Shown here piece after piece: positions 6,820 to 60,718 of a stretch of 64,000 nucleotides of DNA; the stretch's first letter is position 1, and each line of letters begins with the position of its first letter. A model generated the notes under the pieces. It saw only the letters and a program-made list of their open reading frames with translations. It was not told where the DNA came from and searched no databases. A program made the translations under genes and the position numbers. Source of the DNA: Candidatus Adlerbacteria bacterium (GTDB lineage: Bacteria > Patescibacteriota > Minisyncoccia > Phycocordibacterales > SBAW01); contig JAQBRA010000002.1 of NCBI GenBank assembly GCA_028286685.1, positions 129,073 through 193,072 on the forward strand. Direction: 5' to 3'.

Positions 6820-6921
6820 GGGTAAGCAAAAACCTTTCAGAAAATAGTCTGGCCCGAGAGCGCTCCAAGCGCGATACGGGAGATCCGAGGACTTTTTCTG
6901 AAAGGTTTTTGTGGAGCTTGT

Positions 6922-16218: not shown

Positions 16219-16786
16219 ACAGTCGCTGGGTTACGGACGTCTGGAGATCGAAGACGGAATTCTGCGAAACGCTCACCGGCACGGTGCCCGACAGCAGTAT
16301 CACTACGTGCGGCTGCAGCCCGACAGATTCCGCGCCCGAGACATAGAACTGCAAATTGGTAATGGTAACCTCGGTTGCGGTAACGGCCGCATAGGCCGCG
16401 CCGTTTTTCGATACCAGGACGGCGGTGCCTGCGGGGTCGCACGTAGATCCGGCCCCGCGGCAATACTTAATGGTCTGATTGTCGGACGACAGGAAGGCTA
16501 CCGAGGTAGCGGGGATGCTGCTGCAGTCGCGCGGCACGGTAACCGTGCCCGAAGATACATCGCAGTGGTAGTTGACGCCCGTGCGCATCGAGCGCGACAT
16601 CGCATCGAGCGAGAAGTTAAGGTTGTTTATGACCGACTTTAAGGTCTGCGCCTTGCGGTCGCTCTCAGACATTGCCAACAGCGCGCCGAGCGCAATGACC
16701 ATAACGGTCGAGAATATCGCCACCGAGACCATCATCTCAATGAGGGTAAATCCGGCTTTGCGGTTCTTTTTGGGGAAAGTAGTCAT
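16208..16786 (-). CDS. type IV pilus minor pilin (PilW/GspJ-like)
   Basis: ORF track. Sequence KAGFTLIEMMVSVAIF. Confidence 0.8.
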   Translation of the reverse strand: MTTFPKKNRKAGFTLIEMMVSVAIFSTVMVIALGALLAMSESDRKAQTLKSVINNLNFSLDAMSRSMRTGVNYHCDVSSGTVTVPRDCSSIPATSVAFLSSDNQTIKYCRGAGSTCDPAGTAVLVSKNGAAYAAVTATEVTITNLQFYVSGAESVGLQPHVVILLSGTVPVSVSQNSVFDLQTSVTQRLYDQ

Positions 16787-16787
16787 A

Positions 16788-17489
16788 TTAGCAAGAGGCA
16801 GGGTCTGCGTTGACCTTGCATACGGCGATCTGGCCCGCGCTGCTTACCTTTACCGTGCGCACATCGGTGCCGGCCGCGGCCTTTAGCTGTACGTAGGCAT
16901 ACGAGTAGACCGGCACGGCATTGACCGCGCATGCGCCCGGATTGCGGCTGGTAGCAAAGCACCCGTCCGGATTGGGGCGCCGGAAGAATATCGTAAGCGA
17001 GGTGATGGTCGTGCCGCCTGACTGGCACTCGTCATTGCCGCTGGCGATATTATGGGCGCAGAAGTCGCTGATGTAGTAGTCGGTGCCGCGGCCGTTGCCC
17101 AGCGTAAAGCGCGGGAGCTCCTCGCCGGCGTCGTACTGCCCGTTGCCTGCACTTGCGGGTATAGTGTCCGCAAATAAAAGGTAGTGGCTGGAGTCCACCA
17201 GCCCACTGTTGCCAAACTGGACGCCGAAGCCCTGGGAGAACTTGCCGGTACCAACACCGCTCTCGCGGACCGAGACGCCGTAGAGCTGCGCTTGGCGCAC
17301 CGAGAGCGCGGAGGAGTAGGCAAGGCTGCGCAGGAGCGTGGAGCTGTTGAAGCCCTGCTGGCGGAAGAGTACGAAGCCGGTAATGAGCACGATAATGAGC
17401 GACACTACCAAAAGCTCGATCAGCGTAAAGCCCCTCGCCGGGCGCGAATGCCTAAAGTAGGAGCGTAAGCGATTGAAAGAAGTCTGCAT
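16788..17489 (-). CDS. type IV pilus minor pilin (FimT/GspH-like)
   Basis: ORF track. Sequence [16 protein letters not shown] after a 20-aa leader. Confidence 0.8.
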   Translation of the reverse strand: MQTSFNRLRSYFRHSRPARGFTLIELLVVSLIIVLITGFVLFRQQGFNSSTLLRSLAYSSALSVRQAQLYGVSVRESGVGTGKFSQGFGVQFGNSGLVDSSHYLLFADTIPASAGNGQYDAGEELPRFTLGNGRGTDYYISDFCAHNIASGNDECQSGGTTITSLTIFFRRPNPDGCFATSRNPGACAVNAVPVYSYAYVQLKAAAGTDVRTVKVSSAGQIAVCKVNADPASC

Positions 17490-18237
17490 GGAAAAAGTAA
17501 GCGGTGGCGGCGCCGAGTATCAGGAACGGCGCAAAGGGCACCTCGCTACTCATTGTATATCTATTTTTAAACACTAAGAGCAGGGCTATTCCTATAAGCG
17601 CTCCGGACCAAAACGCTATGAGGAGCGCCGTAAAGCCGGCCGTCAGCCCCAAAAGCCAGCCTAAAGAAAGCTCTAATATGCCGTCGCCCCACCCCATCCA
17701 TCGGCCGCGGGATACAAGGGATATAAGAAGGAGCGGCCCGGCCAGTATCGGACCGACAAGCAGGCCCCAGTAGCCCATACTCTCCCCTACTATTGCTGAC
17801 TGGCTGAAAAAGCCGAGAAGCGCCCCGCCCAAGGCGAGCGCCATAAGCACAAGCGTCGCCGACCAGGGAATAATTTGGTGGCGCAGGTCGTAGACTACGA
17901 TAAACAAAAGCACGAGCCATACCCCAAACCAGTACAAAAACCACAAAGGCTCCGGATTTTGGAGATACGCAAAGACTGCGAGCACTGCAGCCATAGCCTC
18001 TACCGCCGGGTACTGCCAGGAGATGCGGGCGCGGCAGTAGCGGCACTTGCCGCGCAGAAAGAGATAGGACAGGAGCGGAACAAGATCGAGGCTTGAAAGT
18101 TCGTGGCCACAGCGCATGCAGGCACTCCTGCCTTTAAGGACCGAGCGCCCGGTATTGAAGCGGAATAGGAGCGCGTTAAGAAAGCTCCCCAGTATGAGCC
18201 CCAAGCCCGCCACGAAAATATATACTAGCAGCGGCAT
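17452..18237 (-). CDS. pilD: prepilin peptidase (A24 family)
   Basis: ORF track. It has an N-terminal CxxC...CxxC motif, polytopic membrane topology and a conserved MGWGDG motif. Confidence 0.9.
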   Translation of the reverse strand: MPLLVYIFVAGLGLILGSFLNALLFRFNTGRSVLKGRSACMRCGHELSSLDLVPLLSYLFLRGKCRYCRARISWQYPAVEAMAAVLAVFAYLQNPEPLWFLYWFGVWLVLLFIVVYDLRHQIIPWSATLVLMALALGGALLGFFSQSAIVGESMGYWGLLVGPILAGPLLLISLVSRGRWMGWGDGILELSLGWLLGLTAGFTALLIAFWSGALIGIALLLVFKNRYTMSSEVPFAPFLILGAATAYFFHADFFQSLTLLL

Positions 18238-18854
18238 TACGGAGCGACGTCGTAGCAGGCATCAGTGGTCGCAGCGGTTGTGCCAGTGCAGGCAGTTGCA
18301 TTGCCGTTAAAGGTAGCGGCACCCGGAACACTGAGCGTACAAGCAGTGTAGCCGGTATATACGTAGGTGCTCCCGGTGTCAGCATCAACATCTTGAGTAA
18401 GGCCGCCGGCACCCGTAGTATCTTCCATAGCTGCACCCAAGTGATAGGTTACCGGGGGATATGTTGTAGCATTACAGTTTGTGCTGCTTCCAGCTGTATA
18501 AGCAATGTATTTGTAACAACCAGTCCCGGAAGAGCTGGCACAGGCAGCGCTCGAGTTTGGATCGCTGGGGACAACCGGAAGATAAGCGCCAGCCAAACCT
18601 GTATCAGGTGCAGATTTACCACTTATGGTGCTAGCCGCGTAAATATTTTTAGGGTACACACTGTTGTCGTTGTAATAGAGAGACAAGGCAAGCTGAATCG
18701 ATTTTATATCAGCCTGCCGTTTAGCATCTCGTGATTTAGATTTAGCACCCGACAAAGAGACCATGACAATGCTCGCTAAAATTCCAATGATTGCGATAAC
18801 GACCAGGAGCTCGATGAGGGTAAAGCCGCGTCTTGAGGTAAATTCTTTATACAT
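18237..18854 (-). CDS. type IV pilin (PilA-like major pilin candidate)
   Basis: ORF track. It has the canonical [22 protein letters not shown]-terminus and a Cys/Thr-rich C-terminal region. Confidence 0.85.
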   Translation of the reverse strand: MYKEFTSRRGFTLIELLVVIAIIGILASIVMVSLSGAKSKSRDAKRQADIKSIQLALSLYYNDNSVYPKNIYAASTISGKSAPDTGLAGAYLPVVPSDPNSSAACASSSGTGCYKYIAYTAGSSTNCNATTYPPVTYHLGAAMEDTTGAGGLTQDVDADTGSTYVYTGYTACTLSVPGAATFNGNATACTGTTAATTDACYDVAP

Positions 18855-22845: not shown

Positions 22846-23322
22846 TTAATTACAGCCTGCGCCGGTAAACGGAGTTGAGGTTGCACTGCTGACGCAGACC
22901 TCGCCAGCGCCCAAGGTGCCCGCACCAGACTCCAAGTAAGTCCTGATCAGCCAATTGTTGAAATTAGCCGCACCGGTGCCCGCCGTGTTGGATACGGTGT
23001 AGTTGCAGACAGAGACAGGGCTTGCGATACAAGTGCCCGTGCCGGAAGGATCGTTAAATGCGGAGAAGTCCGGAGAGGTGCAGGTAGAAGCAACGCTGTA
23101 CCCTGCAGTCGTGCAAGTAGAGAAAGCTGTAGAAGTGTCAACGCTATTGCTCAGGTTGATAACCCGAACCATCTGGCCGAGCTCGGCTACGCGCTTGGCG
23201 TCGCGGCCCTTGCCGCGTGCGCCGTTAAGGGAAACAAGCACTATAGAGGCCAAAATACCGATAATTGCTATAACGACCAAAAGCTCGATGAGGGTAAAGC
23301 CTCGGGGTTGCTTGTTTTGCAT
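22846..23322 (-). CDS. type IV pilin paralog 1
   Basis: ORF track. The sequence is [44 protein letters not shown]..., whose first ~40 aa are identical to paralog 2. Confidence 0.85.
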
Positions 23323-23380
23323 AGCACCAGTATATCCCGCCCCTCCCCCGCTTAGGCAGCGTGTGGGGATAAGGTGCTAA

Positions 23381-23857
23381 CTAGATGCAGCCTGCGCCCG
23401 TAAAAGGAGTTGTGGTCGCATCGCTTATGCAGACCTTTCCTGAAGGAATGGATCCTGCCCCAGACTCAAGATACGTCTTTATCTGCCAGTTATTAAAGAG
23501 AGCGCCGGCCGTCCCGTCTCGCTTTGACACCGCATAATCGCACGGCGCCGAAAGCGTACCCGTGGTGCAAGCAACAGCGCTGGAAGGGTCAATAAAACTT
23601 CCAAAACTGGGAGAAGAACAGGTACTTGCTCGTGCATAAGCGCCTGTGCAGGTAGAAAAAGCCGCACTGGTATCAACGCTGCTGCTCAGGTTGATTACTC
23701 GTACCATTTGGCCTAACTCTGAAATACGCTTTGCATCACGGCCCTTGCCGCGTGCGCCGTTAAGAGAAACGAGAACGATAGAGGCCAAGATGCCAATGAT
23801 GGCGATGACAACCAGGAGCTCGATGAGGGTAAAGCCTCGGGGTTGCTTGTTTTGCAT
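23381..23857 (-). CDS. type IV pilin paralog 2
   Basis: ORF track. It is a tandem duplicate of paralog 1, with an identical 5' coding region plus 30 nt upstream (agcaccagtatatcccgcccctcccccgc at 23323-23352 and 23858-23887). Confidence 0.85.
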   Translation of the reverse strand: MQNKQPRGFTLIELLVVIAIIGILASIVLVSLNGARGKGRDAKRISELGQMVRVINLSSSVDTSAAFSTCTGAYARASTCSSPSFGSFIDPSSAVACTTGTLSAPCDYAVSKRDGTAGALFNNWQIKTYLESGAGSIPSGKVCISDATTTPFTGAGCI

Positions 23858-23928
23858 AGCACCAGTATATCCCGCCCCTCCCCCGCCTGGCCATCCAGTG
23901 GGGACAAACTGAAGATGCTAAGGAAAAC

Positions 23929-23956
23929 AAAAAACCCGGCTTGGGCCGGGTTTTTT
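23929..23956. terminator. terminator hairpin aaaaaacccggcTTGGgccgggtttttt 3' of pilin paralog 3
   Basis: A GC stem with A-run and T-run flanks. Confidence 0.7.
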
Positions 23957-23976
23957 GTTACTAACAGAAAGTTAGA

Positions 23977-24462
23977 TTAGAGGCACTGGTACGGAGTGGA
24001 GGTTGCGCTGCCGATGCAGACACCGCCAGCGACAAGAGAACCTGCTCCGGTCTCGAGGTAGGTGCGTACGCGCCAGTTCTGGGTGGTCATACCTGTTGCA
24101 ACACCTGCCGCAGTAGACATAACATATTGGCAAGCAGCGGAAAGCGTTCCTGACAACGCACACGAAGCAGTTGCAGTGGTCGGGTCAGAGAACTGGGTCA
24201 AGCTCAAGCCTGTTGCAGTACAGGTGCTTACGCTGCCGACCAACGGAGAGACACCCGAACAAGTAATGGGCGCTGCAGGGTCGGTGTCAGCAACTGCTAC
24301 CGCGCGGGCGATCTGCTGGAGCTCGGCTACACGCTTCGCATCACGGCCCTTGCCGCGTGCGCCGTTAAGAGAAACGAGAACGATAGAGGCCAAGATGCCA
24401 ATGATGGCGATGACAACCAGGAGCTCGATGAGGGTAAAGCCTCGGGAGAACTTTTTATGCAT
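23977..24462 (-). CDS. type IV pilin paralog 3
   Basis: ORF track. Sequence [44 protein letters not shown]... Confidence 0.85.
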
Positions 24463-30451: not shown

Positions 30452-31537
30452 CTAGCCCAAGTCCTGCAATCTGCGCAGCGCCAAGCCCACGGCCACGGAA
30501 AATTCGGGGCCGGCTTCCTTGAGGATCGCCTCGAGAAATGCGGGCGCCTGCGTCTTGCCGAACGGGTCCGAGAGGCGCAGCTCATTCTGTATCTTTGCCT
30601 GCATGAATTCCTTGAGGCCCTTGAGGGTCGCTCCCCCGCCGGTCAGCACCAAGGCGCCCAGGCTCTGGTTGTGCGATTGCTCCCAGGTAGAGGCGGTGCG
30701 GGCAATCTCTGCCACGAGCGGCGTCAGGGAAAGCTCCAGAGACTGCTTGATGCTGTTTTCAGGAATGGAGAGGAGTCCGAACTTGCGCTTGCGCTCCTCG
30801 GCCTGCGCCACCGTAATGCCAAGGCCGCGCGAGGCAGCCAAGGTCATGTCCTGGCTGCCGTGGTTTATGATATGGCTCTCGCGTATGAGCCCGCGCTCGA
30901 CGATATAAAACTTGGTAGTAGCGGCGCCCATGTCCACAACCGCCACCGGAGCCAGCCCGTGGTCGAGCGCGGCGCGCACGGCGCTAAAGACCTCGATTTC
31001 AAAAAAGGATACCGCGAGCGTCGCATCCGCCGCCATGGCGCGAAACTTGGCTATCGTGTCGTTGTGTATCGCCACCAAAAGGACCTCTATCTTGCCGTCT
31101 TTACCCGCCTCCTTGCCGCCGGTAACCACGAACCAGTCCAAGAGCACCTCGTTTATGGGCACCGGTATGTATTTGCGGGCCTCAATCGGCATCACCGAGG
31201 CAAGCTGGCTTTCAAGGGACGACTGGAGCTTAACGAGCGATATGAGGCTCGAGGCGTACGGAATCGAGATGGCGGCATCCTTGGTCGTGACATTTGCCTC
31301 GCGGATAACGTCCTTGAGGGCCTCGCCTATTTTTTCCGCCGAGAGAGAAGTGGCACGGCCGATCTCCACACCCGCGTAGGGGCCGAGCGCTATCGCGCCG
31401 TACGTTTCAAGCACCACGCGGCCGTGCTCGCGGCGCAGCTGCACTACTTTTATAGATGAGGTGCCTATGTCGATGCCCAAGACGCTCTGCGTCGGCTTGG
31501 AGAACATGGTAGACAGCGATGAGAGAGAGAACGCCAT
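30452..31537 (-). CDS. pilM: type IV pilus assembly protein PilM (actin-like ATPase fold)
   Basis: ORF track. Sequence LGIDIGTSSIKVV... places it in the FtsA/PilM family. Confidence 0.9.
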   Translation of the reverse strand: MAFSLSSLSTMFSKPTQSVLGIDIGTSSIKVVQLRREHGRVVLETYGAIALGPYAGVEIGRATSLSAEKIGEALKDVIREANVTTKDAAISIPYASSLISLVKLQSSLESQLASVMPIEARKYIPVPINEVLLDWFVVTGGKEAGKDGKIEVLLVAIHNDTIAKFRAMAADATLAVSFFEIEVFSAVRAALDHGLAPVAVVDMGAATTKFYIVERGLIRESHIINHGSQDMTLAASRGLGITVAQAEERKRKFGLLSIPENSIKQSLELSLTPLVAEIARTASTWEQSHNQSLGALVLTGGGATLKGLKEFMQAKIQNELRLSDPFGKTQAPAFLEAILKEAGPEFSVAVGLALRRLQDLG

Positions 31538-36986: not shown

Positions 36987-38096
36987 TTACTTGGTAAACG
37001 TAAGGACGACCACCTCGCTATTGGTGCCCACGCGCAGCGGAGGGCCCCAGGTGCCTACCCCGCTACTGGTGTACACCTGCATACTGCCCAGACGCTTAAG
37101 CCCGTACGCAAAGCCTTGGTACGTCAGCTGGGCCAGGTGCATAAACGGCCACTGCTGTCCCAAGTGCGTATGCCCCGACAACTGCAAAGAAATGCCTGCT
37201 CCGCTTGCCACCTCCAGATGTCTGGGCTCATGCTTGAGCAAGATTGAAGGCTTCTCGGGGGCAATAGGCAACGCCGCCAGTACGGCAGCAAACTCATCGC
37301 GACCGCCAGTAGTCTTGTAGTCGACGCCTATAAGCTGCACTCCGTCTATATCGAGTAGCTCATCTTGCAGTACGCGCACATCTGCCGAGCGCAAGGCATC
37401 CATAAATGCGGCCGCGTCGCCATACTCCTCGTGGTTGCCGGTAATAAAATATATGCCCATTGGCGCCTTAAGACTGGCGAGCGGGGCGGCAAGGCGCTTA
37501 AGGTCGGGCGCCGTCGTGCCGTCAAACAAGTCGCCGCCGATGCACACCAAGTCGTGGGCCGTGCTGTTAACAGCATCAACAACGCGCTGCATGCTTTTCT
37601 CTCCGTGTATCTGGCCAAGGTGGACGTCGCTTATGAACGCGAGCCTCCTCCCCTCCCAGGCCGGGGGTAAGTTGGGCAACTGCGCCTCCAGTTCGCGTAC
37701 TACAATGGTGCGCGCATGCGCATAGCCGTACGCACTTACTAGTAGTGCCAGAGCCATAGACGCCCAGCCTACCCACGGCACCAGGCTGCCCGCGACAAAC
37801 ACCGCCACGCCATACACCGATGCCGCAATAAAAAGGTACGCGAACGCGCCCATCCATACCGCAGACGCCTTGTAGTAGGCGCGCGTCCATACAGTGTGGT
37901 ACCGTGTGCCCAAGAAAGTTGAGAGCACGAACGTGCCCGACAACAAGCCCAGCACAAGACCAAGCGTTAGGGCTGGGACCCAGCCGTTGAGCATGAACAT
38001 GGCGGCCCATGCCTCGTATACCACCATGTTGGCGATAAACAGGAATACCGAAAATACGAGCAGGAAGGGTGCGAAGGCAAGCAGACGGCGTCTCAT
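36987..38096 (-). CDS. membrane-anchored metallophosphoesterase (calcineurin-like)
   Basis: ORF track. It has an N-terminal polytopic region followed by the ISDVHLG...GGDLFDG...GNHE motifs. Confidence 0.85.
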   Translation of the reverse strand: MRRRLLAFAPFLLVFSVFLFIANMVVYEAWAAMFMLNGWVPALTLGLVLGLLSGTFVLSTFLGTRYHTVWTRAYYKASAVWMGAFAYLFIAASVYGVAVFVAGSLVPWVGWASMALALLVSAYGYAHARTIVVRELEAQLPNLPPAWEGRRLAFISDVHLGQIHGEKSMQRVVDAVNSTAHDLVCIGGDLFDGTTAPDLKRLAAPLASLKAPMGIYFITGNHEEYGDAAAFMDALRSADVRVLQDELLDIDGVQLIGVDYKTTGGRDEFAAVLAALPIAPEKPSILLKHEPRHLEVASGAGISLQLSGHTHLGQQWPFMHLAQLTYQGFAYGLKRLGSMQVYTSSGVGTWGPPLRVGTNSEVVVLTFTK

Positions 38097-38113
38097 AGCA
38101 CGTGAGTATAACC

Positions 38114-38190
38114 TAGCGAGTGAGAGAACAAAAACTTGTTTTTGATTCCGAGCGAGCGACGGTTATATGAGACGTCCTCGTGCTCATATA
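38114..38190 (-). repeat. copy 1 of a conserved ~77-nt two-hairpin intergenic element
   Basis: tagcgagtgagagaacaaaaacttgtttttgattccgagcgagcgacggttatatgagacgtcctcgtgctcatata. Two similar copies lie at 42977-43053 and 59280-59356. It sits between the EVE gene stop (38205) and the phosphoesterase start (38096). Confidence 0.8.
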
Positions 38191-38204
38191 GCACTATGGG
38201 CTTT

Positions 38205-38669
38205 TTATGCGCCCGATGACAGCTCCACTAGGTAATCAAAATGCTTCTCGCTGACCGGCTGTACCGAGAGCCTGGTGGCCTGCGCCAGCACCATGCCGCG
38301 CAGGACCATGTCGCCCTTAACCTCGGCGAGCGTTATCGGCCGCTTGAACTTCTTTACGAACGCAACGTCCACGAGCCACCAGCGCGGCTTTTCTTTAGTG
38401 GCCTTCGGGTCAAAGTAATGGCTCTTTGCCTCAAACTGTGTGGGGTCCGCGTACGGCTTCCCTACTACCTTAGCCACCCCTACCGCCTGCTTCTCATCGC
38501 CTGAGTGGTAAAACACGCATAGGTCTCCGGGCTGCATGACCATCATAAAGTTGCGCGCCTGATAGTTGCGCACGCCGGTCCAGGCGGTTTTCTTATCGCG
38601 CTTGAGGTCGTCGATGGAATACGTTTCCGGTTCGGATTTTAATAGCCAGTACTGTTTGGGTTCTTTCAT
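38205..38669 (-). CDS. EVE (PUA-like) domain protein
   Basis: ORF track. WLLKSEPETYSIDDL... is typical of EVE domains. Confidence 0.8.
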   Translation of the reverse strand: MKEPKQYWLLKSEPETYSIDDLKRDKKTAWTGVRNYQARNFMMVMQPGDLCVFYHSGDEKQAVGVAKVVGKPYADPTQFEAKSHYFDPKATKEKPRWWLVDVAFVKKFKRPITLAEVKGDMVLRGMVLAQATRLSVQPVSEKHFDYLVELSSGA

Positions 38670-42624: not shown

Positions 42625-42972
42625 TTACATCCCCATATGCGGGATCTCCATCACGTCTATCGTCGCATTCGGGATAGTCGCATGCGGGCAGTCTGCAAAT
42701 ATCTCGCAGGCAGCCTCGTGGGTCTCGGCCTCCACTATCTGGCAGAAGTTAAGGTCGTTGCGCGTATCCTTAACGCCGTCCACGCTTACGGTCTTGGTCT
42801 TGCCCAGGGGCCAGCCCTTCTCAACAAAGCTCGAAGCGTGCTTGGCCATCCACGTGCTCATGTCCTCCCCCAGCTTCTTGCCCTGAGCCATCATCTCCTC
42901 CTGGCTCGTGGTCTTCTTCCACTCCTCCATGGTCGCGACCGGCACGCGGAATATTGCAAAGTATTTTTTCAT
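42625..42972 (-). CDS. hypothetical small protein (115 aa)
   Basis: ORF track. Sequence MKKYFAIFRVPVATMEEWKK... Copy 2 of the repeated element abuts its start codon. Confidence 0.6.
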   Translation of the reverse strand: MKKYFAIFRVPVATMEEWKKTTSQEEMMAQGKKLGEDMSTWMAKHASSFVEKGWPLGKTKTVSVDGVKDTRNDLNFCQIVEAETHEAACEIFADCPHATIPNATIDVMEIPHMGM

Positions 42973-42976
42973 GTCC

Positions 42977-43053
42977 TAACGAGTGAGCGATTAAAAGCTC
43001 GCTTTTAATTCCGAGCGAGTGACGGGCATATGAGACGTCCTCGTGCTCATATG
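42977..43053 (-). repeat. copy 2 of the conserved ~77-nt two-hairpin element
   Basis: taacgagtgagcgattaaaagctcgcttttaattccgagcgagtgacgggcatatgagacgtcctcgtgctcatatg, lying between stop 43087 and start 42972. Confidence 0.8.
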
Positions 43054-43086
43054 AGGCCAGTATACCAAACAGGCTAGTCTACTGGT

Positions 43087-44815: not shown

Positions 44816-45970
44816 TTACCGTATAGCCCGCGCTACCGCTTGCGCTATGCCCTTTTCAAAGGGACCGGGTATGACTTTTTGAGCTGTCGGGCGCTTAACA
44901 AGCGCCGCCAGGTTCTGTGCCGCCTTCATCTTCATCTGGTCGGTAATCTTCTGCACCCTATTGTCCAAAGCGCCACGGAAGATGCCGGGGAATGCCAGCG
45001 AGTTGTTGACCTGATTGGGATAGTCGCTGCGGCCTGTGGCCACTACGGCCGCTCCCGCGGCAAGGGCAAGCTCCGGCAGAATCTCGGGCGTCGGGTTAGC
45101 CATCGCAAATATGATGGGCTTTGGCGCCATAGTCTTTATCATGACCGGCGTCAAAACGCCCGGCTTTGATACGCCAATAAATATGTTGGCATCAACCAGC
45201 GCCTTTTCCAGGCTCCCCTCGCCACCAGCAAATACAATGCCGTCTTTTATAAGCTTTTTCTTGGTGTCGTTTAAATCCTGGCGCGCGTTCCCGACAATGC
45301 CGACGCTGTCTACCGCAATAATATTTACTTTGGGCGCGGCAAGTTTCAAAAGGCGCATAATAGCGACACCCGCCGCCCCTACCCCGCTTACCACTATCCA
45401 GCAGTTAGGGTCGTTAAGCTTTTTGCCCACGACCTTGGCCGAGTTGATAAGCCCGGCCAACACCACAATGGCGGTGCCATGCTGGTCGTCGTGCATCACC
45501 GGGATGCTGAGCCGCTTCTTTAACTCCTCTTCAATGTAGAAGCACTTGGGCGCGGCAATGTCCTCGAGATTGATCCCGCCAAACGCCGGCGCCACCGCCA
45601 TAACCGCCGCGATTATCTCGTCGGGGTCCTGCGTGTCCAAAACCAAAGGGAATGCGTCTACGTCGGCAAAGGTCTTAAACAGCGCGCACTTGCCCTCCAT
45701 AACCGGCAACGCACCCAAAGGCCCGATATTGCCGAGCCCCAGCACAGCTGAGCCGTCGGAAATAACGGCGATCATACGGCCCTTAATAGTGTAGTCGCGG
45801 GCAAGCTTCGGATTTTTAGCAACCAGGGACGACACGGCCGCCACGCCCGGTGTGTAGACTAGGGAAAGGTCGTCGCGGTTTGCCACCTTGGCGGCCGGCA
45901 TGATGCGGATTTTGCCGCCCAGCTTCTTGTGCAGGGCAATAGCTGCTTTTGAGACGTCTTTTTTAGCCAT
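44816..45970 (-). CDS. NAD(P)-dependent malic enzyme (small form)
   Basis: ORF track, 384 aa. Sequence DLSLVYTPGVA...VVSGVGAAGVA shows the malic-enzyme NAD-binding region. Confidence 0.85.
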   Translation of the reverse strand: MAKKDVSKAAIALHKKLGGKIRIMPAAKVANRDDLSLVYTPGVAAVSSLVAKNPKLARDYTIKGRMIAVISDGSAVLGLGNIGPLGALPVMEGKCALFKTFADVDAFPLVLDTQDPDEIIAAVMAVAPAFGGINLEDIAAPKCFYIEEELKKRLSIPVMHDDQHGTAIVVLAGLINSAKVVGKKLNDPNCWIVVSGVGAAGVAIMRLLKLAAPKVNIIAVDSVGIVGNARQDLNDTKKKLIKDGIVFAGGEGSLEKALVDANIFIGVSKPGVLTPVMIKTMAPKPIIFAMANPTPEILPELALAAGAAVVATGRSDYPNQVNNSLAFPGIFRGALDNRVQKITDQMKMKAAQNLAALVKRPTAQKVIPGPFEKGIAQAVARAIR

Positions 45971-51910: not shown

Positions 51911-51972
51911 AGACGAGTGCCTAAATGTGGCACTGCGTAACAAACAGACACAAGGAAGGAAGGGGCTCTGTC

Positions 51973-52587
51973 ATGCTTGAAACCGGAATTGATACCGACC
52001 GCTTTTCTGGCCCTATGTTGTTCGGAATCGAGAACTACGATCCGTCGCGGATTCCCAAGCCGCGTTACCCGGCAGATCCAAGCATCCTCGATATGTCGCC
52101 GATCCAGATAAAGGAGCGGCGACGCAAAGAGGTGCATGCCCTGCTCGCCATGGGCCCGTACTACCGCAAGGCGCCGCCGGAACCTCTGGCCGTTCGTATC
52201 AATGACCGCCACAAGCGCGTTGACGTGTGGGGCCGCTCCCGGTGCCACATAGGCACCGCCGACGACATCAGGACGGTCGCTGGCGACGACGACCTTTCCA
52301 ACCACCTCTACATCGCCGACGACCTGTACTTGCGGGCTACTGGAATGACTCATCCCCTGTCCGACACATACAAAGCGGAGGAGGCGGAGCATTACGTCGG
52401 CGAGATAGACGGAGAAAATCTCAAAAAGTACAGCGAATCTGCCGTTACTGAAAGCGCCGACGAACTGGATGCTCTTCCGCCGGGAGTCCTATATTCTACG
52501 GACTCTGTCCGGCATCGCCTGAACGTCGTAAATATGGAGAAGCGGAGACTAAGGAAAATAAAACGAAGGAAGGAGAAAAAGCTCTGA
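51973..52587 (+). CDS. hypothetical protein
   Basis: ORF track 51925-52587. ATG at 51973 has a GGAAGGAAGGGG Shine-Dalgarno-like stretch upstream. The C-terminus is basic. Confidence 0.5.
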   Translation: MLETGIDTDRFSGPMLFGIENYDPSRIPKPRYPADPSILDMSPIQIKERRRKEVHALLAMGPYYRKAPPEPLAVRINDRHKRVDVWGRSRCHIGTADDIRTVAGDDDLSNHLYIADDLYLRATGMTHPLSDTYKAEEAEHYVGEIDGENLKKYSESAVTESADELDALPPGVLYSTDSVRHRLNVVNMEKRRLRKIKRRKEKKL

Positions 52588-52738
52588 ACATTACGCAACC
52601 ACCTGGAGAAGGCGCGGCACGCTAAGACTCTGTCTTACTGCCCGCCTTCTCCCCACATTTAGGCACTTGTCGCACTCGTTTGTTTTTCTGGCATTCATGC
52701 ATAGCATCGCTCCCCTTTTTATTGGAGAGGTGTTATAC

Positions 52739-53113
52739 GGGGATGCCAGGCTTAGACAATGAGAATGCTTGCTTGATGCGCGAAGTAGCAGTGGGAATCT
52801 GCTTAAAAATATCCCAAAACATAACTGCAAAAACAGTTGCATCGCCGTACTTTTCGGCGAACCAGTTCGCTTTCGCTTACGCCAAAGCGTAACTGGCATC
52901 CTCCTATCCTCGCCTGATGGATAGGTCCGGGTGTTATAAACCGGGCTATAGCTGGTGGCCGTAATCCATCCTCCAGCCGAACAATGGATTTGCAGATATA
53001 CAGTATTTGGTTTGCTTTACAGCTGTATACCTAAAGAAACTCAAAGCAAACTACACTTCGTAGAAGCTCTCGCAGCACCTTATTGCACGGCGGTTCAATT
53101 CCGCCCATCTCCA
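52739..53113 (+). ncRNA. ssrA: tmRNA (ssrA), one-piece
   Basis: The 5' GGGGATGCCAGGCTTAGACAA pairs with the 3' ...GGCGG-TTCAATT-CCGCC-CATCTCC-A, giving a T-arm plus 7-bp acceptor stem with one G-U. A tag-like frame GCA AAA ... GCC AAA GCG TAA (52827-52892) encodes AKTVASPYFSANQFAFAYAKA. It lies downstream of smpB. Confidence 0.6.
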
Positions 53114-53125
53114 CAAGTAGCACAG

Positions 53126-55209: not shown

Positions 55210-56451
55210 TTACCGAGGAGGCTCGTTAAGCGAAATTTTATACACCGCGCCCGCGCGATCATCCGACACATAGGCCACGCCGCCCGGCTCGGCCAATACC
55301 GCTACCGGGCGACCAATAGTGTCACTTGCGCTCTTGCCGCCCGCAGGCAAAAATCCGGTTACAAAGTCGGTCGTAAATTGGTCCTGCCGCAAGGTCCCTT
55401 CCGGATTAAGGAAGTCGATGCGCACCACCTTGTAGCCTGCGGGCTCGGAGCGATTCCACGAGCCATGGTACGCCACTAACGCGTCGTGCCAATACTCTTC
55501 AGGCCAACCTTCTTCCGGCACGAATGCCAAACCGAGCGCTGCCGAGTGCGCTGGCAAGTCTACATGCGCAGCCACTGTATCCGCACAAGGGTCGCGTATA
55601 TATTGGCGCTTGTCGTAGTCGGTATCGTGCACCTTCTGCCCGTAGCAGATAGGCCAGCCGTAATTGCCTCCCTGTTTTATGATATTGAGCTCGTCCGGCG
55701 GAATATCATCGCCGATAAGGTCACGGCCGTTCTCCGTGCCCCACAGCTCGCCCGTTACCGGATGCAGCGCCATAAAGACCGTGTTGCGCAGGCCGGTAGC
55801 GACCGGTGTCATTACTCCCGTTTCCAAATTGACGGACTGCACCGACGCGCGCAGCGGGCTTGATTCTTCGCAAGCATTACAGGAAGATCCTACAGAAACA
55901 AAGAGGCTCTTGTTATCGGGTGCAGGCAGGAGCGTGCGCGTATAGTGTCCGCTGCCGGTCGGAAACGTTGCAAGCGTTTTCTGATAGGTCGCTTTATAGG
56001 TATCGGCATCATAGGCGTATGCCTTAAGCGCGCCCGTCTCGGCAACATAGAGCGTGCAAGAATCCTCTTGCACGCAAATGAACGCAAGTCCGTGCGGCTG
56101 GTCGAGCCCTGACAGCACTTCGACAATCCTGTCTGCTTGCCCGTCGCCATTAAGGTCAGGCAAGGCCGAAACTTTTCCTTCGCTTGTTTGCGAAACCAGC
56201 AGCGCACCTTTGGGATCGCGCACTAAGACGCGCGCACCCTTAACGTCTCGAGCGAATATCGTTGCGGAAAATCCTTCCGGCACCATGAGCGGGGCGGCTA
56301 GACCCTCGGGCAAAGGGGCCGGCGGCTTGGCTGCGGTAAACAGCGCGATGAGAAATGCGGGCGGCCTGTACTTAACGTATTGATAGCCAAAGTATCCCCC
56401 CACTAAAAGTACCAAGAGCACCGCCAAGGCCCACCCGTACTTGTTTTGCAT
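55210..56451 (-). CDS. PQQ-dependent sugar (glucose/sorbosone) dehydrogenase-like beta-propeller protein
   Basis: ORF track, 413 aa with an N-terminal anchor. Sequence ...NYGWP... matches the GSDH family. Confidence 0.75.
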   Translation of the reverse strand: MQNKYGWALAVLLVLLVGGYFGYQYVKYRPPAFLIALFTAAKPPAPLPEGLAAPLMVPEGFSATIFARDVKGARVLVRDPKGALLVSQTSEGKVSALPDLNGDGQADRIVEVLSGLDQPHGLAFICVQEDSCTLYVAETGALKAYAYDADTYKATYQKTLATFPTGSGHYTRTLLPAPDNKSLFVSVGSSCNACEESSPLRASVQSVNLETGVMTPVATGLRNTVFMALHPVTGELWGTENGRDLIGDDIPPDELNIIKQGGNYGWPICYGQKVHDTDYDKRQYIRDPCADTVAAHVDLPAHSAALGLAFVPEEGWPEEYWHDALVAYHGSWNRSEPAGYKVVRIDFLNPEGTLRQDQFTTDFVTGFLPAGGKSASDTIGRPVAVLAEPGGVAYVSDDRAGAVYKISLNEPPR

Positions 56452-58651: not shown

Positions 58652-59275
58652 TTAGAGATGGGCTGCCAGGGAAGCCTTCTCCGCCCCCGCCTCAAAGCGG
58701 AAAGAGGCGCGGTTAACCTTGTCCTTGTTAACGAGCTCGGCCACTCGCTCTACAAGCGCCTTGGGGTCGGAATCAAAGAGGATGCGGTCGTTGGGGCGAT
58801 GGCCCTTTTCGAGTATGTATTTGATCTCCTCGTCAGTCTCCCAGTCGGCCTCCAAGATGCCCATGGGCTTCTGATCCTCAAACGCGATAGTAAACTCGTG
58901 GATGGTTCCGATGCGCCCGCAGCCGAAGAAGACCGCGTCGCACGAGCGGGTAAAGATAAGGTCCCGGCCCGGGAACCCGAAGCCCGTGTAAATGATCATG
59001 TCCATGTACTCGACCGGCAGGTTGTAGGCCTCGATATGCTCCTTTTCGGTATTGGCCGGCGAGAATCCCACCGTAAAGCCGCCCGCCTCTTTAGCGCCCA
59101 TGGCTGCCCACAGAGGAAAGCCGGTGGTTGCGCCGTTAACCAGCACGGCGTCGTGCTTGGCTATCTCGCGACCAAGCGCCAGCCCCTTGTCATACGCGTC
59201 GATGCCGCAATGCCCCGTCTCTGCCGCGCCTGATATGCCGAATTTTAATTTGAGATGCTCGTTCTTGGGATTCAT
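58652..59275 (-). CDS. LOG-family / TIGR00730-like Rossmann-fold nucleotide-binding protein
   Basis: ORF track, 207 aa. Sequence ...FGCGRIGTIHEF... Confidence 0.7.
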   Translation of the reverse strand: MNPKNEHLKLKFGISGAAETGHCGIDAYDKGLALGREIAKHDAVLVNGATTGFPLWAAMGAKEAGGFTVGFSPANTEKEHIEAYNLPVEYMDMIIYTGFGFPGRDLIFTRSCDAVFFGCGRIGTIHEFTIAFEDQKPMGILEADWETDEEIKYILEKGHRPNDRILFDSDPKALVERVAELVNKDKVNRASFRFEAGAEKASLAAHL

Positions 59276-59279
59276 GGTC

Positions 59280-59356
59280 TAGCGAGTGAGAGAATAAAAG
59301 CGCGGCTTTAGTTCCGAGCGAGTGACGACCATATGAGACGTACTCGTGCTCATATG
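59280..59356 (-). repeat. copy 3 of the conserved ~77-nt two-hairpin element
   Basis: tagcgagtgagagaataaaagcgcggctttagttccgagcgagtgacgaccatatgagacgtactcgtgctcatatg, lying between stop 59363 and start 59275. Confidence 0.8.
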
Positions 59357-59362
59357 GATATA

Positions 59363-60718
59363 TTATAGCTCAATAGTCGCGCTATCCCCCTGCCCCGGAG
59401 CAGTGGCCTTCACGGCCAAGTAGTCGCGGATGCGCTGGGTCAGGAAGCCGGCTGCGGCGGGCTCGCCCTCTACGACGAACACTTGGGTAAGAGTGCCGGC
59501 GCAAGCCTCCACCAGCTCCATAAGCCCTGCGCCGTCGCGGTGGGCCGAGTAGCCGTACAGGGTCTCCACGTGCGCGCGTACCGGTATGACTTCTTTTCCT
59601 ACATGGAGCTCCTTCTCCCCTTCCAAGAGCCGGCGGCCTATGGTGCCCGCTGCTTGGTAACCCACGATAAGCAAGGTAGAGGCGGGGTCAGGGAGCACGT
59701 AGCGCTCGTGGCTGAGCACCCGGCCGCCGTTGCTCATGCCCGAGCCCGCCAGAATGATCTTGGGTCCCTCAACCGACTGGATGAGGCGGGACTCCTCCTG
59801 GTCGCGGGCAAACTTCATTTCCGGAAAGGAGAAGATCTTTTCCCCCTTTGCAACGCGATCCTGAATCTCGCGGGAGAAGTATTCCGGATGATCCTCGAAA
59901 GCGGCCGTGATCTTCTCGGCCAGGGGCGAGTCCAAAAATACCGGCACTGAAGGTATCATCTTTCCGGTCATGAGCGACCGGATCTCGAATACCAGGTCTT
60001 GCGTGCGCTCGGTTGAAAATGCCGGAATAAGCAGGGTGCCGCCGCGCAAGACCGTAGCCTCAATGACGTTCTCCAAGTCCTCGCGGCGATGGCTGTCGTC
60101 CTGGCGCACGCGATCGCCGTACACGCTCTCGATAACCAAGTAATCGGGATTAGGCAGCGCCTCGGTAAGCGGCAGGAGCGGCGAGTTGCCGCCGCCCAAG
60201 TCGCCCGTTACGACCAGGCTTTTATCTGCGCGGCTAAAGCGCGACATGGCAGAGCCAAGTATGTGTCCGGCGTCATAAAACTCATGAGTCATGCCATCCG
60301 GAAGCTCCAGAGGCTCGTGCAATCCCCGCTCCTCCCACAGCTTGAGCGCATGGTCGATATCCTGCTCGGCATACAAGGGCTCGCGTCCGCCATGCCCGAC
60401 GGCTCGGATCATAAGGCTGAGCGCGTCGCGCATGATGAACTCCGCAAGCGAGCGCGTGGCATGGGTTGAGACTATTTTTCCGGTAAAGCCCGACTTGACC
60501 AGGAACGGTATGCGGCCTACGTGGTCGAGGTGCGCATGGCTGATAAACAGGTGCGAAACCGCCTTTACGTCATAGGCAAACGGCTTGTAGTTGTCTTCTT
60601 CGTGTACGCCCTGCTCGAAGCCGCAATCAATGAGGAATTTGGCGCCCCCGGTATCGAGCATAAAGTTGGAGCCGGTCACGGACCCGGCCCCGCCATAGAA
60701 CGTCAGTGTTGATTGCAT
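59363..60718 (-). CDS. MBL-fold beta-CASP ribonuclease (RNase J-like)
   Basis: ORF track, 451 aa. It has the HAHLDH motif plus a beta-CASP domain. Confidence 0.8.
   Translation of the reverse strand: MQSTLTFYGGAGSVTGSNFMLDTGGAKFLIDCGFEQGVHEEDNYKPFAYDVKAVSHLFISHAHLDHVGRIPFLVKSGFTGKIVSTHATRSLAEFIMRDALSLMIRAVGHGGREPLYAEQDIDHALKLWEERGLHEPLELPDGMTHEFYDAGHILGSAMSRFSRADKSLVVTGDLGGGNSPLLPLTEALPNPDYLVIESVYGDRVRQDDSHRREDLENVIEATVLRGGTLLIPAFSTERTQDLVFEIRSLMTGKMIPSVPVFLDSPLAEKITAAFEDHPEYFSREIQDRVAKGEKIFSFPEMKFARDQEESRLIQSVEGPKIILAGSGMSNGGRVLSHERYVLPDPASTLLIVGYQAAGTIGRRLLEGEKELHVGKEVIPVRAHVETLYGYSAHRDGAGLMELVEACAGTLTQVFVVEGEPAAAGFLTQRIRDYLAVKATAPGQGDSATIEL

Follow-up and report, generated by a model that had tools for sequence, protein, structure and literature searches.

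A folded repeat found ahead of genes in Patescibacteria, with features of a small insertion element

REP sequences and REPINs are among the described bacterial repeats closest to the element reported here. Like the element, they are short, non-coding, extragenic and imperfectly palindromic, are dispersed in many copies mostly among co-directional genes, have stems with complementary changes, persist for long at orthologous sites alongside gain and loss, and are thought to be processed as folded single strands; as in REP families, many dispersed extragenic copies of the element occur per genome. In REP sequences the maintenance of stems by complementary changes has been described and G-T pairs noted (PMC3733652). 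The element differs in lacking the unpaired terminal GTAG/CGTC tag of the 20–40-nt REP stem-loop (PMC3733652); CTAG and GACG lie inside its rod, where they flank a mismatched helix that we call the GA helix. It is built as a 61-nt rod plus a hairpin rather than as a 20–40-nt palindrome or inverted REP doublet, its conserved blocks oppose each other as G.A mismatches and not as Watson-Crick pairs, it has a 3-nt direct repeat, and it spans classes of a superphylum where a REP family is confined to one genus. MITEs derived from IS200/IS605 (PATEs) resemble it in carrying two hairpins on one strand without terminal inverted repeats and in the strand-specificity of the structure, and a short internal stretch with complementarity to the flanking target recalls their guide/cleavage-site pairing. 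However, IS200/IS605 elements duplicate no target sequence and enter 3' of a fixed tetra- or pentanucleotide, whereas the element has varying 3-nt repeats; their hairpins resemble each other; and the active strand of the IS608 type is on the lagging-strand template, where that of the element appears to be opposite.

Other families are more distant. The element has the fixed-length target-site duplication (3 nt) of DDE-type MITEs and none of their terminal inverted repeats: its ends on the gene-sense strand, ATGAGC... and ...CTAGGT, are dissimilar termini. Correia (NEMIS), ERIC, RUP and BOX repeats are comparable intergenic insertions of about 100 bp that are co-transcribed with their neighbours, bring or recreate promoter elements at their ends, have orientation-dependent effects and show short target duplications (TA for Correia), but their terminal inverted repeats are clear and their distribution is limited to a genus, and none is known between the -10 and ATG of leaderless genes or with a leader ORF ending just ahead of the host start. 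Integron attC sites share structure-based recognition, a folded bottom (antisense) strand, a place between co-directional genes, an outer stem, an unpaired spacer, a mismatched inner box with an extrahelical base, a variable terminal hairpin, and outermost stem bases supplied by the recombination partner. Unlike them, the element is without RYYYAAC/GTTRRRY boxes, without cassette arrays and without a gene in the inserted unit; its neighbours are housekeeping genes, and the Rfam attC was not matched.

The window analysed here, a stretch of 64,000 nt from a Candidatus Adlerbacteria contig, contains exactly three copies of the element, all on the plus strand and spaced 5 and 16 kb apart among housekeeping genes:

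38108–38190, plus strand (folding strand): copy 1, full element with both 3-nt direct repeats; cmsearch 80.4 bits
38108–38110 and 38188–38190, plus strand: direct repeats ATA of copy 1
42971–43053, plus strand: copy 2, full element with direct repeats; cmsearch 73.7 bits
42971–42973 and 43051–43053, plus strand: direct repeats ATG of copy 2
59274–59356, plus strand: copy 3, full element with direct repeats; cmsearch 68.1 bits
59274–59276 and 59354–59356, plus strand: direct repeats ATG of copy 3

The original prediction of three copies of a core of about 77 nt was borne out by pattern search, by a repeat family (D3) consisting of the same three copies, 80–86% identical across 86 nt, and by a covariance model. 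Scanned over the whole window with filters off, the model returned these copies (68–80 bits, E 1e-21 to 1e-25) and, beyond them, no match better than E=0.07; the pattern of the second predicted hairpin, with up to 3 mismatches, gave three matches against 0 expected. The predicted limits omitted an outer stem, P1, which extends the starts to 38108, 42971 and 59274, so that the element comes to about 83 bases (about 77 nt plus a duplicated trinucleotide). It consists of P1 (6 bp), a 9-bp GA helix and two hairpins, P2 and P3, arranged as a 61-nt rod and a second hairpin (61+25 nt):

38108–38113, plus strand: 5' arm of P1 in copy 1, ATAACC, pairing with GGTTAT at 38161–38166
42971–42976 and 43024–43029, plus strand: P1 of copy 2, ATGTCC/GGGCAT
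59274–59279 and 59327–59332, plus strand: P1 of copy 3, ATGGTC/GACCAT
38116–38124, plus strand: 5' strand of the copy 1 GA helix, G-CGAGTGAG, with its partner CGAGCGAGC at 38149–38157 (RNAalifold register)
42979–42987 with 43012–43020, and 59282–59290 with 59315–59323, plus strand: GA helix of copies 2 and 3
38126–38148, plus strand: P2 of copy 1 (hairpin 1 of the original prediction), with compensatory changes
42989–43011 and 59292–59314, plus strand: P2 of copies 2 and 3
38164–38190, plus strand: P3 of copy 1 (hairpin 2 of the original prediction, also called hairpin 3)
43027–43053 and 59330–59356, plus strand: P3 of copies 2 and 3

The helices of the element are maintained by compensatory change. 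P1 follows the pattern AT-NNN-C/G-NNN-AT, and shows double changes at five of its six pairs; in copies 2 and 3 it overlaps the host start codon. The two flanking blocks recognised as conserved in the original prediction are real, and its account missed that CGAGTGAG and CGAGCGAG are each other's partners through tandem G.A mismatches, as it did the 3-nt direct repeats. In order, the nine pairs of the GA helix are G-C, C-G, the tandem G.A and A.G, G-C, U.G, a second tandem G.A and A.G, and G-C, giving two tandem G.A pairs and one U.G wobble. Variants preserve the pairing: among related loci, here given by L numbers, the U.G becomes C-G (L017:3841) or U-A (L005:6252), the C-G becomes U-A or U.G (L005, L038), and at L048 the inner G.A tandem is swapped for G-C plus A-U. 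In P2, where compensatory change had been proposed from the window alone, it is seen within the three window copies and extends to 50 copies. P3 is constant within the window genome, in keeping with the earlier view of it as conserved, and covaries between genomes; at the same site in L050, for example, CACG..CGTC is replaced by the double change CACA..TGTC. Over an alignment of 36 sequences, 94.7% of cells are paired, against about 40% with partners slid, and none of 500 shuffles was as good; with 50 sequences the figure is 95.5%, double changes occur at 17 of 20 pairs, and again none of 500 shuffles was as good. The covariation in both alignments upholds the earlier proposal of selection on structure. 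The core sequence is also highly conserved, and the spacing of the two CGAG-Y-GAG blocks ranges from 15 to 35 nt, tracking P2 length.

The CGAG/UGAG context favours sheared tandem G.A pairs, and the element resembles RNA motifs of this type in having two G.A/A.G tandems in that context. Both tandems have Watson-Crick pairs on either side and the sole bulge, of 1 nt, lies away from them; the element is not a K-turn, since the 3-nt bulge beside the G.A pairs is lacking, and it differs from box C/D RNAs in having no C/D box sequences. Hammerhead, pistol, hatchet and other ribozyme cores, K-turn and loop E were rejected on sequence and bulge requirements.

Which strand folds can be read from the asymmetry of the pairs, and the evidence points to the plus strand, antisense to the flanking genes, rather than to the sense (minus) strand originally proposed. 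The plus strand has 82 G-U pairs, of which the near-invariant U15.G52 accounts for 44, against 22 A.C, and its two tandem G.A pairs lie in CGAG context; the sense strand shows A.C and C.U/U.C mismatches where the plus strand has G.U and G.A. G-U pairs in P2 occur solely on the plus strand (19 against 0 by raw MFE count, about 10 of them genuine by manual reading of the folds), and CUUG and GNRA loops appear when that strand is read. With RNA parameters the rod is more stable on the plus strand in 51 of 52 copies, by a mean of 5.3 kcal/mol (p=4e-10). DNA folding parameters favour neither strand and predict the rod on neither; probably they carry no G.A bonuses, and the comparison thus cannot decide between RNA and DNA. 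P3 was set aside as a strand discriminator, its stems being almost all Watson-Crick on both strands. GC skew suggests that genes are co-oriented with replication, which would place the folding strand on the leading-strand template.

Related copies occur at about 45 other loci, nearly all in Patescibacteria (CPR). In a genome search, 35 of 36 matches were genuine, and nearly all of these came from MAGs belonging to several classes of Patescibacteria; the remaining one (L024), a chance match in a GC-rich coding region, was excluded. Six loci matched in metagenomes under a relaxed pattern, a thin sample of the core's wider diversity, and further diverged copies were found, among them a tandem pair. 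Copy density is three in 64 kb in the window and rises to five in the roughly 24 kb of loci that one MAG contributed. Viral contigs and phage records held no copies, and a phage or viral origin was rejected on that ground. As the original prediction anticipated, the element has no nameable family: Rfam 15 gave none over any copy at the gathering threshold, nor at E up to 10 or 0.5. The literature on Patescibacteria or Saccharibacteria yielded no relevant description of it. A tblastn search with IS608 TnpA and an approximate RAYT query found no match in a small sample of about 0.5 Mb of loci. We take it to be a previously undescribed folded insertion element of CPR bacteria.

The genes and promoters around the window copies are as follows:

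36987–38096, minus strand: metallophosphoesterase gene (Pfam PF00149), downstream of copy 1
38105–38110, minus strand: -10 box TATACT of the metallophosphoesterase gene
38205–38669, minus strand: EVE-domain gene (Pfam PF01878), upstream of copy 1
42625–42972, minus strand: 115-aa conserved hypothetical gene, its ATG overlapping P1 of copy 2
43059–43064, minus strand: host -10 box TATACT at copy 2
58652–59275, minus strand: SLOG/TIGR00725 (LOG-like) gene (Pfam PF18306), its ATG overlapping P1 of copy 3
59362–59367, minus strand: host -10 box TATAAT at copy 3
59363–60718, minus strand: RNase J-like (beta-CASP) gene (Pfam), upstream of copy 3

Orthologous sites in relatives are empty, and this comparison of sequences shows the element to be an insertion. 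At four sites, excising the element in silico with one direct repeat restores a leaderless promoter of the form "-10, 6–9 nt, ATG", an intact -10 box, or a stop codon. The filled copy 1 site reads GTGC-TAT-[insert]-TAT-ACTC against the empty GTGC-TATA-CTC of L051, which continues as GTGC-TATA-CTCGGCACTT-ATG; insertion here split and then restored the TATACT at 38105–38110, whose TAT serves on the sense strand as the right-hand direct repeat. Excision of copy 2 leaves TATACT-GGCCTC-ATG. The copy 3 site is empty in seven related loci (L043–L049), among them L047 with GAGCTATAAT-TATGCAC-ATG and L045 with CTATAAT-AAAAGAA-ATG. In the smpB-tmRNA spacer only L048 carries the element, and removing it with one ATA restores CAA-TAG; L053 has a degenerate copy at TAT|ACT. 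Direct repeats of 3 nt (ATA, ATG or ATT on the folding strand) flank 23 of the 26 scorable copies, namely those in which P3 extends over the internal triplet, and the first repeat of copy 2 (42971–42973) is complementary to a C followed by the AT with which the host start codon begins. In copy 1 the internal triplet is TAT (38164–38166), common to P1 and the foot of P3. Because most direct repeats are the identical ATA, few cases support an internal triplet that tracks the target. If the element were to select its target by pairing this internal triplet with that of the target, the triplet would go on to close one or other of two helices.

These filled and empty sites, the 3-nt direct repeats and the dispersal over many genomes support the MITE/REP-like option among those that the original prediction had offered. 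Several observations count against a mobile element. A transposase or other partner protein did not come to light in the small sample searched, terminal inverted repeats are absent, the GTAG and CGTC tags of classical REPs are not where they would be expected, and the folding strand, if genes run with replication, lies opposite to that of IS608-type elements. The site of copy 1 is filled in L050 by an orthologous copy whose core is nearly unchanged and shows compensatory change, at a flanking protein identity of 76%, whereas pure selfish DNA should decay; this persistence suggests host-level function or gene conversion. Other orthologous conserved pairs or sets are L027/L031, L007/L010/L014 and L016/L029. 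In addition, P3 is almost identical among the window copies while their P2 hairpins differ at 7–8 positions, which is odd for recent copying.

The element lands in tiny gaps ahead of genes, often with the promoter immediately on one side and the start codon on the other, and leaves the gene intact. The window genome uses leaderless "-10 N6–8 ATG" starts. At copy 2, TATACT (43059–43064) lies on the sense strand 6 nt from the first base of the element and 8 nt from the element's ATG, a geometry that matches the leaderless genes of this genome. At copy 3, TATAAT (59362–59367) overlaps the TAA stop of the RNase J-like gene and lies 6 nt ahead of the element; the empty site of L047 has the same GAGCTATAAT, then 7 nt, then ATG. 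P3 ends 14, 33 and 6 nt ahead of the upstream stop codons in copies 1, 2 and 3, and the distance from the downstream ATG to the start of the CGAGTGAG block is 20, 7 and 7 nt; the earlier distances to flanking genes hold for the boundaries then used, with the element starting 17, 4 and 4 nt from the ATG. Across all copies, a gene ATG overlaps P1 in about half and lies within 6–24 nt in about eight more, and -10 hexamers stand just upstream of P3 on the sense strand. The position relative to the promoter varies: copy 1 is upstream of the -10 box, as are the copies of L050 and L053, and copies 2 and 3 are downstream of the start site. The genes that follow the copies are unrelated (rplB, rplK, thrS, proS, uvrA, obg, SLOG, phosphoesterase, tRNA-Pro, tmRNA), with copies upstream of tRNA-Pro in L018 and L020 and of tmRNA in L048. 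A permuted or intron-containing tRNA at L018/L020 was rejected, as ARAGORN calls an ordinary tRNA-Pro whose 5' end the element adjoins.

Of the regulatory roles first suggested, that of a promoter module holds only indirectly: the element adjoins host -10 boxes and in some subtypes includes a -10-like hexamer, but its conserved core is no promoter. A sigma-70 promoter in the core was rejected, since only about half of copies have the key final T in their TATAAT-like P1 arm and the variable length of P2 means that -35/-10 spacing cannot hold; ECF-type and T7-like promoters (GGAAAT..., CTCACT...TAG) were rejected by inspection for wrong and variable spacing. The transcription-factor operator is not supported, the CATATG palindrome being conserved between genomes only in its pairing. 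An intrinsic terminator lacks support too: neither hairpin is followed by a consistent U-tract, the hairpins are AT-rich at the foot, and a T-run follows in few copies. The marks of a riboswitch or leader-peptide attenuator are missing: the downstream genes are mixed in function, and the ORF is intact in only about a third of copies and its peptide is not conserved.

That ORF is one of a set of small frames on the gene-sense strand:

38113–38187, minus strand: copy 1 small ORF MSTRTSHITVARSESKTSFCSLTR*, from an ATG in the P3 arm to a conserved TAG
42991–43050, minus strand: copy 2 small ORF MSTRTSHMPVTRSELKASF*, cut off by a TAA inside P2
59279–59353, minus strand: copy 3 small ORF MSTSTSHMVVTRSELKPRFYSLTR*, its TAG ending 3 nt ahead of the host ATG at 59275

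The mRNA strand begins with ATG in these three and in about a third of all copies, and in copy 1 a -10-like CATAGT lies 5 nt upstream (38193–38198). The frame reaches the conserved TAG, 3 nt ahead of the host ATG, in 16 of 46 copies, with ATGs at -17, -20, -23 or -26 in one frame; more than half of copies lack it or have it shifted or truncated. The variable bulge base is the third position of a Ser codon and C57/U57 variation gives Ala/Thr. A conserved peptide gene was rejected: frames are not kept over length classes, the ORF is lacking in most copies, and the window and L050 peptides differ by 2 synonymous against 6 non-synonymous changes.

We put at about one half the chance that the repeats are small, non-autonomous, structure-dependent insertion elements of the REP/REPIN or IS200-type MITE kind, spread within Patescibacteria genomes. 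The putative mobilising enzyme would handle the folded strand as single-stranded nucleic acid, much as in REP/REPIN-RAYT and IS200/IS605 systems, and the element would target A/T-rich triplets; in GC-rich, packed, leaderless genomes such triplets lie mostly in -10 boxes (TAT|ACT) and start codons (YAT|G), which would explain why copies are wedged there. By pairing with one or the other flanking repeat, the internal triplet may close the long rod or lengthen P3. Selection could account for the orientation bias. In the tolerated orientation the mRNA copy is predicted to lose about 5 kcal/mol of folding stability; in about a third of the whole set, the window's three among them, an AUG would stand at or near the new transcript's 5' end, and in about a third the frame would be open to a UAG 3 nt ahead of the host AUG. 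Ribosomes loaded in leaderless fashion could then terminate at the UAG and re-initiate at the host AUG, making the insertion "translationally transparent". Such transparency cannot be general, as fewer than half of copies retain a complete small ORF. There is a small chance that the repeats are something bolder: either a new kind of mobile DNA handled as a single strand, combining target choice by the internal triplet with translational transparency, or an ancient Patescibacteria-wide G.A-rod module that is bound by a host protein and has a host function.

The plus-strand signature also invites a reading as RNA. A structured small RNA or cis-antisense RNA, with the G.A rod as a protein-binding or stabilising module, might regulate mRNA 5' ends at start codons in the manner of IS10 RNA-OUT, or serve as a 5' leader where a same-strand gene follows, insertion being its route of distribution and not its purpose. 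It would account for the G.A tandems, the U.G, the G-U excess, the loops and the gain under RNA parameters all falling on one strand that DNA parameters do not favour, and for conservation in situ with compensatory change at L050 and in the other orthologous pairs; several free-standing copies have a plus-strand -10 hexamer 6–7 nt ahead of P1 (L030 TATAAT, L003:2807 TACAAT, L028 TATTGT, L011 TAGATT), and same-strand genes or tRNAs follow some (typA at L025, rplI at L003, tRNAs at L005). Yet about 25 copies that overlap start codons have unrelated coding sequence upstream on this strand and no -10 at a consistent distance, a terminator after P3 is not consistent, Rfam has no matching family, and the occurrence of housekeeping-gene sites in both filled and empty form argues that no single site requires the element; we regard this reading as unlikely.

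Transcription in the other direction would make the element a sense-strand 5' leader or intercistronic control element, in which an mRNA starting at the foot of P3 carries a short leader ORF from its 5'-terminal AUG to the UAG, 3 nt ahead of a gene AUG held in P1, and expression depends on leader translation (termination-reinitiation or attenuation); alternatively, a ligand or protein bound at the conserved pyrimidine-rich internal loop would control expression. An ATG within P1 does mean that the mRNA must include the element, and in about half of copies the host ATG overlaps P1 at a single fixed register, -10 hexamers lie 5–9 nt upstream of the foot of P3 or its ATG, and the ATGs of the 16 complete ORFs are in frame across four P3 subtypes, with the variable bulge base at a Ser third position. 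We nonetheless judge a leader quite unlikely in view of the mismatches on the sense strand and its poorer folding in 51 of 52 copies, the ORFs absent, shifted or truncated in over half of copies, the Ala/Thr alternative at position 57, the excess of non-synonymous differences between orthologous copies, the lack of a common function downstream, and the copies that precede a -10 box, tRNA-Pro or tmRNA, where there is no translation. Highly improbable is a double-stranded or cruciform DNA site, whether for a nucleoid or regulatory protein or as a supercoil-dependent hairpin modulating initiation. The two CGAG-Y-GAG blocks would be direct repeats in duplex DNA, the element always has a -10 box a few bases away, to one side or to both, the core is strongly conserved, and P3 has GAA/GGA triloops closed by C-G, which are classic stable DNA mini-hairpins; but the spacing of the direct repeats is not constant, copy 1 stands elsewhere relative to the promoter than do copies 2 and 3, a cruciform requires both strands to fold and one arm would have at least five mismatches, and the strand-asymmetric wobble pairs indicate a single-stranded form.

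Patescibacteria make up a very large and mostly uncultivated part of bacterial diversity, with tiny, packed genomes whose non-coding DNA is almost unexplored, and the element is a covariation-supported structure present in several of their classes. For annotation it poses an issue, as gene callers will misplace starts across it or report spurious small ORFs. Its position flags the promoters and start codons of leaderless genes, and it thus offers a handle on how transcription and translation initiate in these bacteria. If its movement involves a folded single strand, a mobilising enzyme not yet recognised would be implied, and if ribosomes re-initiate after the short ORF, it shows how insertion between a promoter and a start codon can be tolerated.

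The original prediction of three near-identical copies of the element in the window held up: the copies share 80-86% identity over 86 nt, hairpin 2 is present three times with none expected, and a covariance model run with all filters off recovers exactly these three copies at 68-80 bits, the next-best match in the window having E=0.07. The predicted distances to adjoining stop and start codons are also right, given the boundaries used there. Scanning one genome per species, we found that 36 loci matched the exact pattern and that 35 of these are genuine copies, almost all from Patescibacteria MAGs; labels of MAGs with copies include Saccharibacteria, Paceibacterota, Adlerbacteria, Campbellbacteria and Magasanikbacteria. 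Six more loci, from metagenomes, matched a relaxed pattern, and model searches recovered further diverged copies. No Rfam family matches any copy, and viral collections yielded none. (L-numbered handles denote loci from other genomes or metagenomes, followed after a colon by the position in the locus.) Two identical diverged copies, each with a single CGAG/CGAG unit, stand in tandem 99 nt apart at L028:1835-1996.

Described on the + strand of the window, the element consists of five parts:

P1, + strand: 6-bp outer stem (A-T, T-A, N-N, N-N, N-N, C-G)
Small internal loop, + strand: UA facing GAC
9-bp helix, + strand: G-C, C-G, [G.A, A.G], G-C, U.G, [G.A, A.G], G-C
One-base bulge, then P2, + strand: hairpin 1 of the original prediction
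P3, + strand: hairpin 2 of the original prediction; its foot has a trinucleotide in common with the P1 3' arm

The two blocks previously described as conserved are opposed as the two strands of the 9-bp helix, which together with P1 and P2 makes up a rod. Across 36 sequences, 94.7% of cells are paired, compared with ~40% when partners are shifted by 1-3 columns, and none of 500 shuffles reached the observed covariation; with 50 sequences, 95.5% are paired and both sides change in 17 of the 20 pairs. Diverged copies with substituted pairs provide a direct test of the odd 9-bp helix: U.G becomes C-G in L017 and U-A in L005, C-G becomes U-A or U.G in L005 and L038, G-C becomes A-U in L037-L041, and L048 has G-C and A-U in place of the inner G.A tandem. 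The claimed conservation of P3 applies to the three window copies, where it is near-identical, but between genomes P3 differs and covaries, with a double change between orthologous copies. In a "type B" subfamily (L003:2002-2200, L030:6843-7000, L036:4100-4327 (- strand)), P3 is CA-GGGU-RAAU-ACCC and is followed by a series of CUUG-loop hairpins (CCGCGG-CTTG-CCGCGG, CCGGAG-CTTG-CTCCGG), with a second GGGTTAATACC-ATTTATTG motif ~100 nt downstream; this region may represent a composite repeat or a more extended structured RNA.

Sequence comparison of filled and empty sites identifies the element as an insertion. We followed the flanking proteins through their homologues to contigs from related genomes (~78% identity for RNase J). 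Seven related loci (for example, GAGCTATAAT-TATGCAC-ATG in L047 and CTATAAT-AAAAGAA-ATG in L045) have no element at the copy 3 site, the spacer between RNase J and SLOG, which reads GAGCTATAAT-ATATCC-AT[ATGAGC...CTAGACC]ATG in the window. The copy 1 site is empty in L051 (GTGC-TATA-CTCGGCACTT-ATG) and occupied in L050, whose flanking protein has 76% identity. Copy 1 is inserted within a -10 box, with TATACT restored by the duplicated TAT, and a degenerate copy in L053 likewise lies between TAT and ACT. The smpB-tmRNA spacer is filled in L048 only, and subtracting the element and one ATA gives the CAA-TAG stop seen in L047. In-silico excision of copy 2 yields a textbook leaderless start, TATACT-GGCCTC-ATG; relatives instead have a 28-nt leader there, so the site does not decide the matter. 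P3 is extended over an internal triplet in 26 of 52 copies, and in 23 of these 26 the triplet after P3 equals the outermost P1 triplet (18 ATA, 2 ATT, 2 ATG). The matching triplets that flank the element are a 3-nt direct repeat, and the internal triplet, being complementary to both, is able to close either the rod or a long-form P3.

Several of these loci have further features. The window tmRNA (52739-53116, 95 bits) lies downstream of an ORF at 51925-52587, putatively smpB by position; the 150-nt spacer before it (52587-52738) has no copy of the element, and one relative has a copy there. Between RNase J and SLOG, the spacer occupied by copy 3 in the window, two related genomes carry different, unrelated inverted-repeat insertions of ~70-85 nt (GGGCGGGAAAATTTG...CAAATTTTCCCGTCC and GAAAAACTGCCGA...TCGGCAGTTTTTC) at L043:9900-10000 and L049:7657-7760; these lie between the stop codon and the -10 box. 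At L048:9268-9618, in this relative only, a 23S_rRNA_IVP-domain gene separates the RNase J and SLOG genes. The syntenic region of another related genome contains a 250-aa reverse-transcriptase (RVT_1) gene (L044:14010-14762). The copy at L041:1447-1560 carries a nested 39-nt GC-rich hairpin between the conserved GACG and the P1 3' arm, an insertion within the insertion.

Most genes in the window genome and related ones appear to be leaderless, with a -10 hexamer (TATACT/TATAAT), 6-9 nt and then ATG; Shine-Dalgarno sequences are rare, a GGAGG-like site being present in only about three window genes. Apparently leaderless examples in the window, with the -10 6-9 nt before ATG, are:

9640-10374
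22846-23322
30452-31537
44816-45970
55210-56451
59363-60718

Stop and start of operon-internal window genes are separated by few bases. At 22846-24462 and 16163-18830, near-identical promoter/start regions are found in three tandem paralogous genes of 158-161 aa (repeat families D1 and D6), and several more genes have a type IV pilin N-terminal motif in common (D2 and D4). In about half of copies, P1 is overlapped in a single fixed register (...CTAG-NNN-ATG) by the ATG of an opposite-strand gene; about eight more have this ATG 6-24 nt off, with the P1 arm forming part of the -10 box of the gene. Immediately past P3 comes the stop of the upstream gene. Downstream genes are unrelated (rplB, rplK, thrS, proS, uvrA, obg, a SLOG-family gene, a metallophosphoesterase), some copies adjoin tRNA-Pro or stand ahead of tmRNA, and a minority are in reverse orientation, before same-strand genes or tRNAs. 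In one Magasanikbacteria and one Campbellbacteria MAG (L018:2090-2154, L020:7842-7909), a variant adjoins the tRNA-Pro 5' end on the opposite strand, its outer stem made with the complement of the first tRNA bases (CGTCC/GGACG).

Several lines of evidence point to the + strand, which is antisense to the genes on either side, as the folding strand. G-U pairs on this strand number 82, including 44 at the near-invariant U15.G52, and A.C 22 (20 pairs), several of both counts alike being alignment artefacts within one subfamily. In individual folds of P2, G-U pairs are restricted to the + strand, and the G10-C57 pair (G-C 36, G.U 7, A-U 2) varies along the classic path G-C, G.U, A-U. Tandem mismatches are G.A/A.G in a CGAG context on the + strand and C.U/U.C on the opposite strand; the P2 loop is frequently G(CUUG)C on the + strand, and the loops of one orthologous pair, GCGA and GUAA, are each GNRA on that strand. 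P3 is uninformative in this respect. Under RNA parameters, 51 of 52 copies have their more stable rod on the + strand, with a mean advantage of 5.3 kcal/mol, and a small or antisense RNA from that strand is possible, if unlikely. DNA parameters predict the rod on neither strand and thus do not distinguish RNA from DNA; a DNA-level site seems very doubtful.

Where a gene's ATG lies within P1, its transcription has to pass through the element. All three window copies and many others have a -10-like hexamer 5-9 nt ahead of the P3 foot on the mRNA strand, as predicted for insertion right after a leaderless promoter, and the element starts with ATG in the window's three copies and about one third of all copies. 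In 16 of 46 copies, a P3 ATG (-17, -20, -23 or -26, the same frame throughout) opens an ORF of 21-24 codons that ends at a conserved TAG, 3 nt ahead of the host ATG; the ORF is full in window copies 1 and 3 and shortened in copy 2. That the element is a sense-strand leader whose short ORF is regulatory is nonetheless quite unlikely: the ORF is absent or shifted in most copies, and peptide conservation is absent between orthologous copies (2 synonymous vs 6 non-synonymous differences). We read the ORF as a tolerated or helpful by-product that would deliver ribosomes to the host start, not as a selected feature.

The reading that fits best, to which we give about an even chance, is that the element is a non-autonomous mobile repeat. 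Its folded + strand would serve as the substrate of a putative mobilising enzyme, and its position and orientation would be filtered by the tolerance of compact, leaderless genomes. A search of limited sequence (~0.5 Mb of loci) turned up no partner protein. Three observations do not fit a purely selfish element: copy 1 has long been conserved in situ, P3 is identical yet P2 different among the window copies, and the folding strand apparently lies on the leading-strand template. At ~6820-6920 of the window, gene orientation switches from + to - (convergent), and GC skew is negative on either side.

In its way of working, the element is closest to REP/REPIN, IS200/IS605-derived elements and transcribed MITEs such as Correia, but it departs from each of them in a defining feature: it lacks the GTAG or CGTC tag of REP/REPIN, makes a target duplication, unlike IS200/IS605-derived elements, and has no terminal inverted repeats of the MITE kind. 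Integron attC sites resemble it in architecture, but their boxes and array context are absent. The element is of clear interest for Patescibacteria biology, and there is a modest chance that it is of a more unusual sort.
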